Under the pieces are notes generated by a model. That model was not told the origin of the DNA. It worked only from the letters and a program-made list of their open reading frames with translations, and ran no database searches. A DNA stretch of 35,929 nucleotides from the IMG/VR virus record IMGVR_UViG_2537561992_000022. One strand, given 5' to 3'. The position numbers and the translations under genes were made by a program. This document shows positions 2,438 through 5,712 of the stretch, one piece after another; within the stretch, counting starts at the first letter, position 1; every line of letters starts with the position of its first letter. Source of the DNA: a virus (Duplodnaviria > Heunggongvirae > Uroviricota > Caudoviricetes).

Positions 2438-3118
2438 GTACACCTCATACTGTTGATTGGCTCTGGCGCGGGCGAGATCAACAACAGACGTGTATTTTCC
2501 GGTTTCCTTGCGTTCACCTTCGCGACGTTTTTTCCAGATGCGCATCTCTGCCTGAATTTCGGGCCATTTAGCACCAGGAATACATTTATGCTTAACCCAC
2601 CCAATGGCGTGCAACTTAAGCTCCGGATACATGGCGTTAACTTCTGGCATTTTCATCAACGCTTCAACGATATGTCCGTCGAATGTTGCCATGTCTTCCT
2701 GCAACAATTCCTGTGCGCTAATAACCATATCAACGGTGATGTTTTCACATGTGTCGAACTTAACCATGACAGCGTTCTGTACTTCAGGGGCCAGCTTGTC
2801 AAAAGTGACGTTCATCGGATCGGATTCAGTCTCAACCGGGACAAAAGAAGCAGACTCCTCATCCCAGCGGTTTTCCTGCATATATTCAGCATCCCATGAA
2901 TCGAGGGCAGGGCGGGGTATGCCAGGTTTATCCTCGCAGACAATAAATTTATAAGCGCAGTCCTGAGCAGCCGGATAATGTTCCAGGAACTGCCAGTGAA
3001 ATTTTGCTCGAGCACGGCGTTCGTCGCCAGCTTCAATGGCTGTGGCTACAGCCACAGAGCCTTCTTCCCTTGTTGCCAGTTCGTCAGGAATAGCGGCGCA
3101 AATAAAGACTTTACTCAT
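2429..3118 (-). CDS. ydfE: YdfE-like prophage protein; stop codon lies inside the IS right terminus, so the C-terminus is probably IS-truncated
   Basis: 229-codon ORF with GAGG RBS upstream of the ATG at 3118; last gene of the dicB operon by position. Confidence 0.5.
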   Translation of the reverse strand: MSKVFICAAIPDELATREEGSVAVATAIEAGDERRARAKFHWQFLEHYPAAQDCAYKFIVCEDKPGIPRPALDSWDAEYMQENRWDEESASFVPVETESDPMNVTFDKLAPEVQNAVMVKFDTCENITVDMVISAQELLQEDMATFDGHIVEALMKMPEVNAMYPELKLHAIGWVKHKCIPGAKWPEIQAEMRIWKKRREGERKETGKYTSVVDLARARANQQYEVYWQ

Positions 3119-3211
3119 TTTGTTTTAACCTCATGACAGATTTAAGGATGAACAAATCCCTGCCATTGCTGGCATATAAGAATGAAACCGGATATTTATT
3201 ACGGAACTGTT

Positions 3212-3403
3212 TTAAAGACCTGCCGGGATTTCGATATTATCCTGGTGAATAACTTTATCGACCGGGTAACAGTTACCGGGAATTTTCTGTTCGGTTGCTG
3301 CAGTCATACACTCCTGCATTGTCCTGTGAACACTGACTGCAATATCAACTGGCACTCCGGAAACAAGAAAAACTGTCAGAACAAGCGCAAATGCTGAATT
3401 CAT
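3212..3403 (-). CDS. ydfD: YdfD-like small protein (63 aa) with N-terminal hydrophobic segment
   Basis: ATG at 3403 overlaps the dicB stop (ATGA overlap); MNSAFALVLTVFLVSG signal-like N-terminus; size and position match recalled YdfD. Confidence 0.6.
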   Translation of the reverse strand: MNSAFALVLTVFLVSGVPVDIAVSVHRTMQECMTAATEQKIPGNCYPVDKVIHQDNIEIPAGL

Positions 3404-3588
3404 TGTGCACATCCTTTTGGCATCAGACGTAAACGAGCCAGCATTGAAACAATGCATATTTTATTTAATAGCTCCCGTTCTTGTTTTCTCTTGTTAATGG
3501 CATCTTCAGTAAATACAGGGTTACTGATAGTGACACCAATTTCAAAACAACCTTCAGACGTATTAACGTTTGGTAATAACGTTTTCAT
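3400..3588 (-). CDS. dicB: cell-division inhibitor DicB (62 aa)
   Basis: Translation MKTLLPNVNTSEGCFEIGVTISNPVF...MPKGCAQ matches recalled DicB; lies downstream of DicF on the same strand. Confidence 0.8.
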   Translation of the reverse strand: MKTLLPNVNTSEGCFEIGVTISNPVFTEDAINKRKQERELLNKICIVSMLARLRLMPKGCAQ

Positions 3589-3757
3589 TATCGCGTCCTC
3601 AACAATGAATTTTGTGATGCAGTGCCTGGTGCCTCCAGGTGACGTTAACCAGTTAACAATTAACGTCGGATACAGAGAATCCACCCATAACACTGTTTTT
3701 GGTTTTAACTGTTCCGCGTGCGCTCAGCCGCATTCACCGCATCACAAAATTCACTTT

Positions 3758-3815
3758 AAAAAGGGCGGCAGAGCAGTCACGGAGTAAAACTGATACCGCC
3801 AAACGTCACCAGAAA
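3758..3815 (-). ncRNA. dicF: DicF small regulatory RNA with 3' stem-loop and U-tail
   Basis: Minus strand reads TTTCTGGTGACGTTTGGCGGTATCAGTTTTACTCCGTGACTGCTCTGCCGCCCTTTTT, matching recalled DicF; GGCGG/CCGCC stem then T-run. Confidence 0.8.
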
Positions 3816-4074
3816 ATTGATAACAGAGGGCGTTGCAGCGGGGTTGTCACTTAAGCGTATGGTCAACCTGACAACCCGGTGTCCTCAACGGGGAAGGAAT
3901 AACCCCGCCATACTTACCGCCGCGCCATTTTGCGGGTTGCCACAACCGGAAGCGCACGGTCGAATTAAATTTAACGACACCGTACAGTGAGACGAACTTC
4001 GCCGTGCGCTTTCGTGTTGTGTGCCTGCTTTTAACCACGTCAGGCGAGGTGGTATCCTTAAAATCACCACAGTT

Positions 4075-4650
4075 TTAAGGATTCATTAAGCAATGTCGCA
4101 ACCACCAATAAATCCGCTTAAGAACATGAAAATTGATTACTGGTATAAAGCGCTTACAGTTGTTGGCGCTGCGTTGTTTGTCTTTAATGGAACGTCTTTT
4201 TTTGACAGATATCCCGTTGTTCCATTGGGTTTTTTGTCCTCCGGCATCTTTTTTATTGGTTTGGGGGAGTGGATTAATCACCCTCTCATAGTGAGATTTA
4301 TTGGTCCTGGAGTTTGGACTCGTGGATATAATCGTTCTTCGTGCGCACTCGGTATCATCTTCGACATACTTGGTTGTTTCCTGATTGTTACAGGAGTCGT
4401 CAAGTTCTTCTGATGTAAAACCGCAAATGGGGCACGTAACGGGAATTTTGAAAAGCGTTTCTCCGGGTTCCAGAACAAAATTTTCTGCGGTCTGATTTTG
4501 CTTCTCATATTTGTGCTCCGCGTCATTGTGAGAGCACATTCTTATTCTGAGTGCCTGTTTAAACTCACTGAAGCTGAGAGCTTCTTCGCCTTCGGCAAGG
4601 CCTTCGAAGTATTCTTCGTAAGCCTTTTCCATGATTGTGTTGAAATCCAT
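4075..4650 (-). CDS. hypothetical protein in the ydfB/ydfC position; acidic N-terminal half with a CPIC motif, basic low-complexity C-terminal half; extent uncertain
   Basis: ATG at 4648-4650 sits 1 nt after the ydfA-like stop with GGTGA RBS; frame open for 192 codons; C-terminal two thirds overlap an opposite-strand ORF in antisense register. Confidence 0.35.
   Translation of the reverse strand: MDFNTIMEKAYEEYFEGLAEGEEALSFSEFKQALRIRMCSHNDAEHKYEKQNQTAENFVLEPGETLFKIPVTCPICGFTSEELDDSCNNQETTKYVEDDTECARRTIISTSPNSRTNKSHYERVINPLPQTNKKDAGGQKTQWNNGISVKKRRSIKDKQRSANNCKRFIPVINFHVLKRIYWWLRHCLMNP
4093..4413 (+). CDS. candidate small membrane protein with three hydrophobic segments, antisense to the dicB operon; may be a shadow ORF
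   Basis: 106-codon ORF with three roughly 20-residue hydrophobic stretches separated by charged loops; AAGGA 11 nt upstream of the ATG. Confidence 0.2.
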   Translation: MSQPPINPLKNMKIDYWYKALTVVGAALFVFNGTSFFDRYPVVPLGFLSSGIFFIGLGEWINHPLIVRFIGPGVWTRGYNRSSCALGIIFDILGCFLIVTGVVKFF

Positions 4651-4651
4651 A

Positions 4652-4807
4652 TCACTCACCTGAGTTTCTTTCCAGCCAGCGACGGGCACCATTTTCGGTT
4701 TTAAACGTTTTGCTTTTGGTATACGTCATCGCGGTGAACGTGCCGTCCTGGTTGGGGAACACGCCACATACCAGAGATTCGCTGTTGCCAAGATCGATAG
4801 TATCCAT
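4652..4807 (-). CDS. ydfA: YdfA-like small protein (51 aa)
   Basis: ATG at 4805-4807; 51 codons; first gene downstream of dicA on the same strand, as in the recalled K-12 dicB operon. Confidence 0.5.
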   Translation of the reverse strand: MDTIDLGNSESLVCGVFPNQDGTFTAMTYTKSKTFKTENGARRWLERNSGE

Positions 4808-4999
4808 GCTGACCTCATTTCCCCTTAACGCCGGGGTAGCGGAACTGTTTGCTGAGAACACCGTGCGGTGTCTTGATGGAGGTAATTTAGTTTTCTCATT
4901 ATTTTTCGTCAAGGTTTTTTGATGAGAAAACTCAAGTGTTGGCGCAAGATAAAGCCAATACATTGAAATGTAAGGCTTTAAAATTTTGTGAAGGGATGA

Positions 5000-5407
5000 T
5001 TATTGATGCTTGTTGCGTTTGCGAGCCTCTAATAGCTCGGTGAACAGGCGATTAAAATTCTCAACGCGGGCGCGGAGTTCGCTGAGTTGTGCTTGTTGCT
5101 CTGATTTAGGAAGTGCGCGATACAAACGCAGCATCTCTAACTCATCTTCCGATAAGTCTAAGGCACTATCGAGTGAAACAGGGGGAGCTGGTGTTTTGTC
5201 CTCGTCGCCAAACAGTATCCAAGTTGGTGAACATTGCAATACCTCGGCGAGGCGATGCAAATTTTGCCCGCGCGGGGCTGTATGGTCACTTTCCCATAAT
5301 GAAATTGATGAGCCAGATACGCCAGCAGCTTTGCTTAAACCGTTTTGACTTAAGCCTACCTGCTTACGTCTTTCTCTAATGCGTTGACCTAAAGTTTTCT
5401 CGTTCAT
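5000..5407 (-). CDS. dicA: DicA repressor (XRE-family HTH, 135 aa)
   Basis: Translation from the ATG at 5407 (MNEKTLGQRIRERRKQVGLSQ...NLHRLAEVLQCSPTWILFGDEDK) matches recalled DicA in sequence and length. Confidence 0.85.
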   Translation of the reverse strand: MNEKTLGQRIRERRKQVGLSQNGLSKAAGVSGSSISLWESDHTAPRGQNLHRLAEVLQCSPTWILFGDEDKTPAPPVSLDSALDLSEDELEMLRLYRALPKSEQQAQLSELRARVENFNRLFTELLEARKRNKHQ

Positions 5408-5484
5408 ATTTAGATATCTTAATAACCCTTGACTTGAGATTCCTTGAGTGATTAGCATTGAGAAAACTCAATATTGGAGGTGCG
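5408..5484. promoter_or_regulatory. divergent dicA/dicC promoter-operator region with TTGAG repeats and the palindrome TTGAGAAAACTCAA (5458-5471)
   Basis: 77-bp intergenic region between divergent repressor and Cro-like genes containing direct and inverted TTGAG/CTCAA repeats. Confidence 0.5.
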
Positions 5485-5712
5485 ATGTTTAAATCAGACG
5501 TAATTAATTTTTACGGTACGAAAGCCAAAGTAGCGAAAGCTGCTGGCGTTGACCCATCTGCTGTTTCTCAATGGCAAGAGCTGGTTCCTGAAGGTCGCGC
5601 GATGCGTCTACAGGAGGCATCTGGCGGCGAGCTTCTGTATGATCCCAAGGTTTATGACGAATATCGTAAGACGAAGCGGGCGGGGCGGTTGAACAATGAA
5701 AATCACTCCTGA
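5485..5712 (+). CDS. dicC: DicC / Cro-like regulator (75 aa)
   Basis: GGAGG RBS before the ATG at 5485; divergent from dicA; translation resembles recalled DicC. Confidence 0.7.
   Translation: MFKSDVINFYGTKAKVAKAAGVDPSAVSQWQELVPEGRAMRLQEASGGELLYDPKVYDEYRKTKRAGRLNNENHS

Follow-up and report, generated by a model that had tools for sequence, protein, structure and literature searches.

The dicB operon of the viral record IMGVR_UViG_2537561992_000022 (Caudoviricetes), whose entire 35,929 nucleotides (nt) are referred to here as the window, harbours two open reading frames (ORFs) that lie on opposite strands and share their codon boundaries, a 106-residue ORF on the plus strand being enclosed by a 191-residue ORF on the minus strand, in the direction of the operon. 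Both strands carry a real gene, but the two are unequal. Within the overlap, the plus frame is under clear purifying selection, and the minus frame is without amino-acid constraint but under strong selection against stop codons; beyond the plus stop codon, it is the minus frame that is constrained, and most of the minus ORFs compared are preceded by conserved translation signals. Judging from these comparisons, it is probable that both strands are translated, with the plus protein as the constrained member of the pair and the tail of the minus frame kept open.

The register described in the original prediction is exact, since the codons of both ORFs start at positions congruent to 1 mod 3. The whole plus ORF is contained in the minus ORF, the overlap amounting to 321 base pairs (bp) including the plus stop codon, and the predicted lengths also agree, 106 codons for the plus ORF and 192 for the minus ORF, that is, 191 amino acids and the stop. 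The minus protein (MDFNTIMEK...) starts at an ATG in 4650-4648, one base after the ydfA stop (TGA, 4654-4652), and AGGTGA lies 5 nt upstream, which bears out the ribosome-binding site and the tight coupling to ydfA that had been read there. Its composition is likewise as first described: residues 1-80 are acidic (7 Lys and Arg, 15 Asp and Glu), and residues 81-191 are basic and very hydrophilic (21 Lys and Arg, 12 Asp and Glu; grand average of hydropathy -1.15).

Selection on the two frames

Across six diverged lineages (the window and loci L117, L118, L119, L006 and L003), the ratio of non-synonymous to synonymous substitution rates (dN/dS) in the plus frame is 0.09-0.19, and differences are distributed over the three plus codon positions as, for example, 11/7/35; in the subfamily of phage mEp390 the counts are 19/12/52. 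The ratio between differences at plus positions 1 and 2 is that commonly seen in genes that code in a single frame. In a set of 81 near-identical loci from viral contigs and genomes, single-nucleotide polymorphisms (SNPs) occur at 12 sites of the overlap, eight of them at plus position 3; six are synonymous in the plus frame, and ten are non-synonymous in the minus frame, one creating a minus stop. The plus ORF is a real gene under strong purifying selection.

From the plus stop codon to the minus start, only the minus same-boundary frame, out of the six, is stop-free in all 19 lineages compared. The roughly 45 codons following the ydfB-derived part (Table 1) carry the motif PGE..F.IP..CPICGF.S, which takes the form (E)PGE..F.IP..CP[IV]CGF.S in window-type lineages and the related forms M.YEFFERL....PGSV.ID.....V.L.GW.L or ..KPLYDKCP.CGC.L in mEp390-type lineages. 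Differences in this zone fall at minus codon position 3 (4/6/20, 6/5/17 and 3/5/12), and the ratio of non-synonymous to synonymous differences (pN/pS) is 0.35-0.79 in the window type; between mEp390-type lineages it is 0.18-0.23 for the closest and reaches 0.48 against L013. Of the eight SNPs in 4414-4650, five are synonymous in the minus frame. Purifying selection thus acts on the motif zone in the minus frame, and it follows from the substitution pattern on either side of the plus stop codon that the phase flips there, from the minus frame to the plus frame. A plus-strand feature in this stretch, either a 3' untranslated region or an extension in the +1 frame, was considered because the wobble phase of that frame is the same as that of the minus frame, and was rejected, since the +1 frame has stops in 11 of the 19 lineages.

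What precedes the motif varies: it is the N-terminus of ydfB in the window and the start codon of ydfA/ydaF in L117 and L119, and the P13, Yersinia and mEp390 types have a start of their own. A Shine-Dalgarno (SD)-like motif before the minus ATG is clear in about 11 of 15 lineages and weak or absent in L006, L013, L154 and L161. The minus ORF of the window is a chimera in which the N-terminus of ydfB is joined to a motif brought by the cassette and to a tail antisense to the plus gene; identity with K-12 is 96.7% from 4550 onwards, and the ORF was rejected as a full YdfB (K-12 b1572, 42 amino acids), as only residues 1-34 match and the C-terminus is replaced. Pfam scans of nine minus proteins gave nothing usable, and the minus family, with 28 clusters, is restricted to Enterobacterales.

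Two loci depart from the common form. In L118 (P0003 type, Escherichia), a minus-frame TGA at ~3322-3345 interrupts the motif (CPVC-stop-F) and the plus gene is intact; in L119 (1716-2531), the minus frame starts at the ydfA/ydaF start codon, passes through the cassette and extends into ydfC, giving an ORF of 271 amino acids, and a PaaA2/ParE toxin-antitoxin pair adjoins the repressor gene of the same locus.

In the tail, the minus-frame dN/dS is 1.3-1.7 between close lineages, and in the mEp390 subfamily differences affect 52 minus residues against 21 plus residues out of 105, so that the tail changes about 2.5 times faster. The model of the minus protein has a mean predicted local distance difference test (pLDDT) score of 42.9, with residues 35-191 below 50, the underlying alignment holding only seven close sequences.

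For the window taken alone, the open minus frame is only mildly beyond chance, the probability of finding no antisense stop being ~0.07-0.09 with the codon usage of window ORFs of at least 150 amino acids or of K-12, and 0.008 with that of the flanking ORFs. Across the phage lineages it is far beyond chance. Thus, 16 of them (GC content 0.41-0.54, plus-protein identity down to ~38%), chosen partly for an intact minus ORF and sharing ancestry, so that their probabilities are not independent and products of them overstate significance, contain no antisense stop, where local codon usage predicts ~67. All the remaining lineages together have 106 stops observed and 106.8 expected, an agreement that supports the calibration, reference codon usage having been taken from raw long ORFs. 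TTA, CTA and TCA, the three Leu and Ser codons that read as minus-frame stops, are absent from the pooled phage set (TTA or CTA in 0 of 204 Leu codons and TCA in 0 of 70 Ser codons, or 0 of 274), and they make up 70 of the 272 Leu and Ser codons of 13 relatives with antisense stops (GC content 0.35-0.50). In the phage set, A-ending Thr, Ala, Pro and Gly codons still stand at 21-26%, and Leu is mainly encoded by CTT, CTC and TTG instead of CTG; the depletion is therefore distinct from the bias seen in highly expressed genes. The depletion of stops across lineages indicates that the operon frame is kept open by selection.

Among the diverged relatives, both frames are open over a long overlap only in enterobacterial phage lineages. 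Five lineages of this group do have antisense stops; in four of them the stops lie only opposite plus codons 4-17, leaving the last 90-102 codons open, and in the fifth (L162) a stop is found as far in as codon 43, with 62 codons open. An open minus frame is not maintained in the Burkholderia-type phages, and distant homologs in integron or other contexts have 3-17 antisense stops and keep only the plus frame. The question raised in the original prediction, whether homologs conserve only one frame, is therefore answered in two ways, the distant homologs keeping the plus frame and the enterobacterial phage homologs both.

The plus-strand family and its surroundings

Full-length homologs of the plus protein (100-111 amino acids, 36-58% identity) occur in many metagenomes as well as in Yersinia enterocolitica, Herminiimonas and Reinekea. 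When 1.84 billion representatives were searched with a profile, the result was 450 clusters at 50% identity with E<=1e-3, nearly all of them ~100-115 amino acids long, and genome scans place the family in many phyla, with members in Proteobacteria, Desulfobacterota, Nitrospirales, Arcobacter and others. DYWYKA (residues 15-20) and GLGEWINHP (residues 56-64) are its motifs: DYWYKA and N-H-P are invariant across the family, and the G, E-W-I and L of GLGEWINHPL are kept at 90% or more. The plus ORF has the length typical of the family, carries both motifs and aligns over its full length. Its AlphaFold (AF2) model, built on 20 sequences, has a pLDDT of 82.6 and consists of three helices (residues 17-32, 42-62 and 85-105) and a beta-hairpin, in keeping with the three hydrophobic segments first noticed; homology, selection, the structure model and position all support the earlier suggestion that this is a genuine, moron-like gene on the opposite strand.

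Scans of the plus protein and its relatives against Pfam, NCBIfam, PHROG and PADLOC gave nothing usable, no model covering the family; a PDB sequence search with the family profile found no match, and a Foldseek comparison of the model with viral models gave nothing below E=0.02. A type I toxin-antitoxin component and a holin were tried as identities and rejected, with no family match and a best holin fold at E=0.4. The window carries T at 4289, where most near-identical loci have A (it differs from 69 of the 80 ungapped ones), which gives Ile for Lys at plus residue 66 and Tyr for Phe in the minus frame.

The plus gene is a mobile accessory gene that occurs both as a phage moron and as an integron cassette. 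Many distant homologs are co-directional with their neighbours, and the neighbours of the non-phage homologs showed no conserved partner gene. In Pseudomonas guineae (L016), the homolog is flanked by 78-nt attC-like repeats (CTAACAA...GTTAG) at 3919-3996 and 4308-4385, which recur nine times in that locus among small co-directional ORFs, with a spacing of 389-1973 bp (seven of the eight gaps being 389-643 bp). This homolog is an integron gene cassette; the window copy is phage-borne, so that the repeat criterion does not apply to it. Similar repeats are seen in Salinimonas (L019). In Arcobacter sp. Pygsuia-1, three protein-identical copies of the family (L020, L021, L022) lie at distant sites of one chromosome, which suggests carriage on a repeated mobile element. 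A scan of viral contigs with the Yersinia homolog as query found nothing.

In Yersinia and other enterobacterial prophages, the homolog adjoins a CI-like repressor gene and is convergent with it, with a small ORF in between at one locus; where the other flank is present, the homolog lies on the strand opposite to the early-left genes, the orientation of the flanks having been judged from raw ORFs. In phage mEp390, the pair lies between a cro-like gene and the next early-right gene, and not in the early-left region.

Upstream of the plus gene, a Shine-Dalgarno-like motif and a candidate sigma-70 promoter can be read (Table 1). AAGGA- or AAAGA-like sequences stand at the first site in four of the five other window-type lineages aligned, L117 and L119r reading CGGAT. 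The candidate promoter is conserved in six diverged lineages, and this conservation is what points to it, since a scan for consensus promoters and terminators found no promoter for the plus gene and the candidate falls below its threshold. A 41-nt element with two interleaved inverted repeats overlaps the candidate; in L161 one repeat reads GCCGG..CCGGC, a change on both arms, and the element is absent from K-12 Rac and Qin. A weak terminator-like hairpin on the plus strand (4590-4609), within the ydfB-derived codons and ~180 nt past the plus stop, could be the end of the plus transcript.

The stretch 3200-5500 is a Qin-type dicB operon on the minus strand, to which ydfD also belongs; DicF was the only Rfam match in 3000-5600. 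K-12 Qin shares the flanks (ydfA, the first 34 ydfB codons, dicF, dicB and ydfD) at 97% identity and differs in the module between them, the cassette of the window replacing the 3' end of ydfB and ydfC. In the records of phages HannyBb (CDS0038) and mEp390 (mEp390_039) only the minus ORF is annotated, and Bcep176 gp33 is annotated on the strand of the plus family. The mEp390_039 entry (L123:2456-2911) is the antisense ORF, noted as 'similar to Bcep176 gp33' though gp33 is on the family strand; the family homolog of mEp390, at 2501-2815 on the plus strand of the locus, is unannotated.

Table 1. Positions in the window of the overlapping pair, its signals and the surrounding operon genes
Feature	Position	Strand	Basis
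Plus ORF, 106 amino acids and TGA; three-helix membrane protein	4093..4413	+	Homologs, dN/dS, SNPs, model
Minus ORF, 191 amino acids and TAA; operon orientation, coupled to ydfA	4075..4650	-	ORF list; annotated as WP_000344958.1 in one genome; phrog_35040
Minus ORF from first ATG, 205 amino acids	4075..4692	-	ORF list
ydfB-derived first 34 codons of minus ORF	4549..4650	-	Annotated as 'ydfB, missing C-terminus' (PGAP); phrog_2061 matches residues 1-34
Minus-frame motif EPGETLFKIPVTCPICGFTS, residues 61-80, ending on the complement of the plus stop codon	4411..4470	-	Kept in all window-type lineages
Minus tail of 111 codons, of which 106 lie antisense to the plus gene and 5 past its start	4078..4410	-	Hydrophilic, basic, stop-free
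AAGGA, Shine-Dalgarno-like, 11 nt upstream of plus ATG	4077..4081	+	Read from the sequence; putative function
Candidate sigma-70 promoter of plus gene: TTTAAC (4030-4035), 17-nt spacer, TGgTATCCT extended -10 (4050-4058)	4030..4058	+	Conservation; putative
41-nt element, two interleaved inverted repeats (GCCTG..CAGGC, ACCAC..GTGGT), overlapping the candidate promoter	4022..4062	.	Conserved in all window-type lineages
Module in place of ydfB 3' end and ydfC of K-12 Qin	4033..4549	.	K-12 homology only in 3100-4032 and 4550-4878
ydfA (DUF1391), directly upstream of minus ORF	4652..4807	-	ORF list, annotation
DicA-like helix-turn-helix repressor gene	5000..5407	-	ORF list, annotation
DicF small RNA, downstream in operon	3763..3814	-	Rfam RF00039, 76.7 bits
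dicB, cell-division inhibitor gene, downstream in operon	3400..3588	-	ORF list, annotation

A proposed mechanism and the alternatives to it

Expression of the two genes, and the reason why the minus frame is open, we infer from the comparisons above. The plus gene would encode an inner-membrane protein and would have its own extended -10 promoter, being probably transcribed while the operon is repressed; its product probably protects the lysogen at the membrane, as proposed by analogy with sieB, which occupies the same slot. Since similarity to SieB or to defence families was not detected, it is position that suggests this protective role. After derepression, ribosomes would start at the ydfB ATG, coupled to ydfA, read the CPICGF knuckle motif and go on to translate a further 111 codons, which run antisense to the plus gene and end slightly beyond its start. 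The sequence of this tail would be set by the plus gene and otherwise be free to vary, with selection removing stops. The most likely reason for the open frame would be that ribosomes must travel across the antisense insert, and their transit would spare the operon transcript Rho termination, or decay by ribonuclease III (RNase III) after pairing with the plus mRNA; alternatively, the hydrophilic tail might be functional. In what may be called 'translational bridging', temperate enterobacterial phages would carry a conserved module of two strands, with a membrane-protein moron set backwards in an early operon and the operon frame across it stop-free purely for ribosome crossing while its amino acids drift, a proposal that is tentative and somewhat short of probable.

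It has to be noted that several observations weigh against the proposal that both strands are translated and the tail kept open. The tail has neither amino-acid constraint nor a confident fold, as far as a seven-sequence alignment allows, and the stop in the motif of L118, together with a stop in the tail of one near-identical locus, means that the open frame is not indispensable. Untranslated RNA of 260 nt in the window, and of 340 nt in K-12, is tolerated before dicF, which weakens the argument from ribosome transit; the minus RNA over the overlap is only mildly richer in C than in G (C/G 1.2), so that a skew like that of Rho utilisation (Rut) sites is weak. The lack of detectable similarity between the plus protein and SieB or any defence family also counts here, as do the partial choice of the 16 lineages for an intact minus ORF and their shared ancestry. 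Finally, the Prokaryotic Genome Annotation Pipeline (PGAP) did not call the plus ORF in either of the two genomes inspected, and it called the long minus ORF in only one of them, as a 191-residue hypothetical protein, the other having only a ydfB pseudogene.

True dual coding, in which the whole minus protein of 150-190 residues is functional, maybe as a disordered basic tail on a small knuckle domain, and the DNA of the pair is genuinely bifunctional, is unlikely. It would account for the 90-110 codons over which almost every enterobacterial phage lineage keeps the frame open, for the conserved N-terminal domain, for the recurrent C-terminal endings in part of the mEp390 subfamily, and for the persistence of the pair during divergence of the plus protein to ~38% identity. 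However, it is difficult to reconcile with the rate of change of the tail, ~2.5 times that of the plus protein (52 and 21 of 105 residues, respectively), with plus positions 1 and 2 behaving as in a single-coding gene, with the variable end point of the tail, with the free swapping of the N-terminus upstream of the motif (ydfB, ydfA ATG or own ATG) and with the lack of a confident fold.

It is quite improbable that the plus gene alone is real and the minus ORF a passive shadow, open through register and codon habits, with translation of ydfB having no role and the database calls phrog_35040, WP_000344958.1 and mEp390_039 being artefact annotations. Shadow ORFs are a known artefact of gene finding, and of all the frames of a gene it is generally the same-boundary antisense one that is most open. 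The pair shares with them the register, the mirrored hydropathy (a hydrophobic plus and a hydrophilic minus protein) and a minus-frame dN/dS above 1, and the window-only probability of ~0.07-0.09 under window-wide or K-12 codon usage, the low pLDDT of the minus model, the confinement of its family to 28 clusters of Enterobacterales and the frequent reduction of the minus ORF by PGAP to a ydfB pseudogene point in the same direction. Unlike a shadow, however, the minus ORF has its own selected N-terminal domain, usually with an SD-like motif and an ATG, directly upstream in every enterobacterial-phage lineage examined, and it is stop-free in 16 lineages where ~67 stops were expected. Register and codon habits would not explain the absence of antisense-stop codons from Leu and Ser positions (0 of 274, against 70 of 272 in stop-bearing relatives) beside normal use of other A-ending codons, nor a choice of Leu codons foreign to high-expression bias, and lineages outside the set fit the expectation. 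Thus, from the original statement that either ORF can be the shadow of the other, what stands is that only the plus frame is constrained in the overlap, where the minus tail is, as far as sequence goes, the shadow; what does not is the idea of the minus ORF as a mere reflection, as it is a real operon ORF with a selected domain and a stop-free frame.

A regulatory or toxin module, in which the plus protein is toxic (holin-like or a type I toxin) and operon transcription acts as its antisense control, or else plus transcription blocks leaky expression of the toxic DicF and DicB, is very unlikely, both variants taken jointly. Class I holins resemble the plus protein in size and in having three helices; the convergent geometry, with a conserved candidate promoter facing the operon, and the same arrangement upstream of kilS/kilR in Rac would also suit such a module. 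Against it, the plus protein resembles no holin, type I toxin or defence family and, with 106 amino acids, exceeds typical type I toxins, and the module would leave both the stop-free minus frame and the conserved minus-frame domain unexplained.

The reverse assignment, with a genuine minus gene and a plus ORF that is its chance shadow, deserves almost no credence: the minus ORF is longer, in operon orientation, translationally coupled and called by most gene finders and PHROGs, but the comparative data already contradict the idea, with a plus-frame dN/dS of 0.09-0.19 and substitutions at plus wobble positions, a plus family spread over many phyla in which 3-17 stops interrupt the minus frame, a confident three-helix model and the annotation of Bcep176 gp33 on the family strand.

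Known systems and significance of the pair

The closest parallel in position is sieB of the Rac prophage (K-12 b1353), which encodes a superinfection-exclusion membrane protein and has the same slot and orientation as the plus ORF. The K-12 Rac order racR-ydaG-ydaF-[sieB, opposite strand]-kilS-kilR corresponds to dicA-ydfA-ydfB'-[plus ORF]-dicF-dicB in the window, and each of the two is the only opposite-strand gene between the repressor-side genes and the pair of small RNA and division inhibitor. The product of sieB is also a small membrane protein of the lambdoid early-left region; its likeness to the plus ORF is positional only. SieB has 162 amino acids against 106, and assignment of the plus protein to the SieB family (PF14163) was rejected, as a Pfam scan at E<=1 gave no match and BLASTP against K-12 SieB gave E=12. 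Moreover, K-12 sieB overlaps ydaF by only 4 nt, with no annotated operon-direction ORF running through it.

Antisense overlapping pairs have been described in E. coli O157:H7, e.g., pop/ompA, asa, ano and oloz (PMC9927249, PMC5960689, PMC6294744, bioRxiv 10.1101/2020.11.18.388249). As in those pairs, long ORFs lie here on opposite strands, one member being old and constrained and the other taxonomically restricted and weakly constrained. The O157:H7 cases rest on ribosome profiling (Ribo-seq) and phenotypes, and their overlapping ORF is usually short, young and found only in Escherichia/Shigella. In contrast, the evidence for the present pair is comparative, namely the depletion of stops among lineages that share only 38-58% identity in their plus proteins; here it is the longer ORF, in operon direction, that is taxonomically restricted, and the pair has persisted while the plus protein diverged below 40% identity. 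OGC51 (bioRxiv 10.1101/2020.11.18.388249) was considered as this pair and rejected, its sequences being a different locus; no paper on the locus studied here came up in literature searches covering ydfB/ydfA/dicB and antisense overlapping genes.

The pair exposes an annotation blind spot, a widespread family of small membrane proteins having no model in Pfam, NCBIfam, PHROGs or PADLOC and being hidden, in the phage records inspected, behind a longer antisense ORF that is called instead (phrog_35040, mEp390_039, HannyBb CDS0038). Selection on long bacterial antisense overlaps is disputed and has mostly been argued from Ribo-seq, and the argument here is comparative. The pair is also easily tested, as a single change that is silent for the plus protein can place a stop in the minus frame.

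Integron cassettes have been reported to encode phage defence (bioRxiv 10.1101/2024.07.02.601719), which fits, and does not prove, a defence role for the plus family. Lying in the slot of Rac sieB and upstream of the toxic DicF and DicB, the plus gene may represent a new lysogen-protecting function and be part of the silencing of such operons. If translational bridging is true, it would be a previously undescribed way of embedding an antisense gene in an operon without polarity, and, of the long antisense overlaps kept open by selection in bacteria or phages, the pair would be one of those best supported by comparison.

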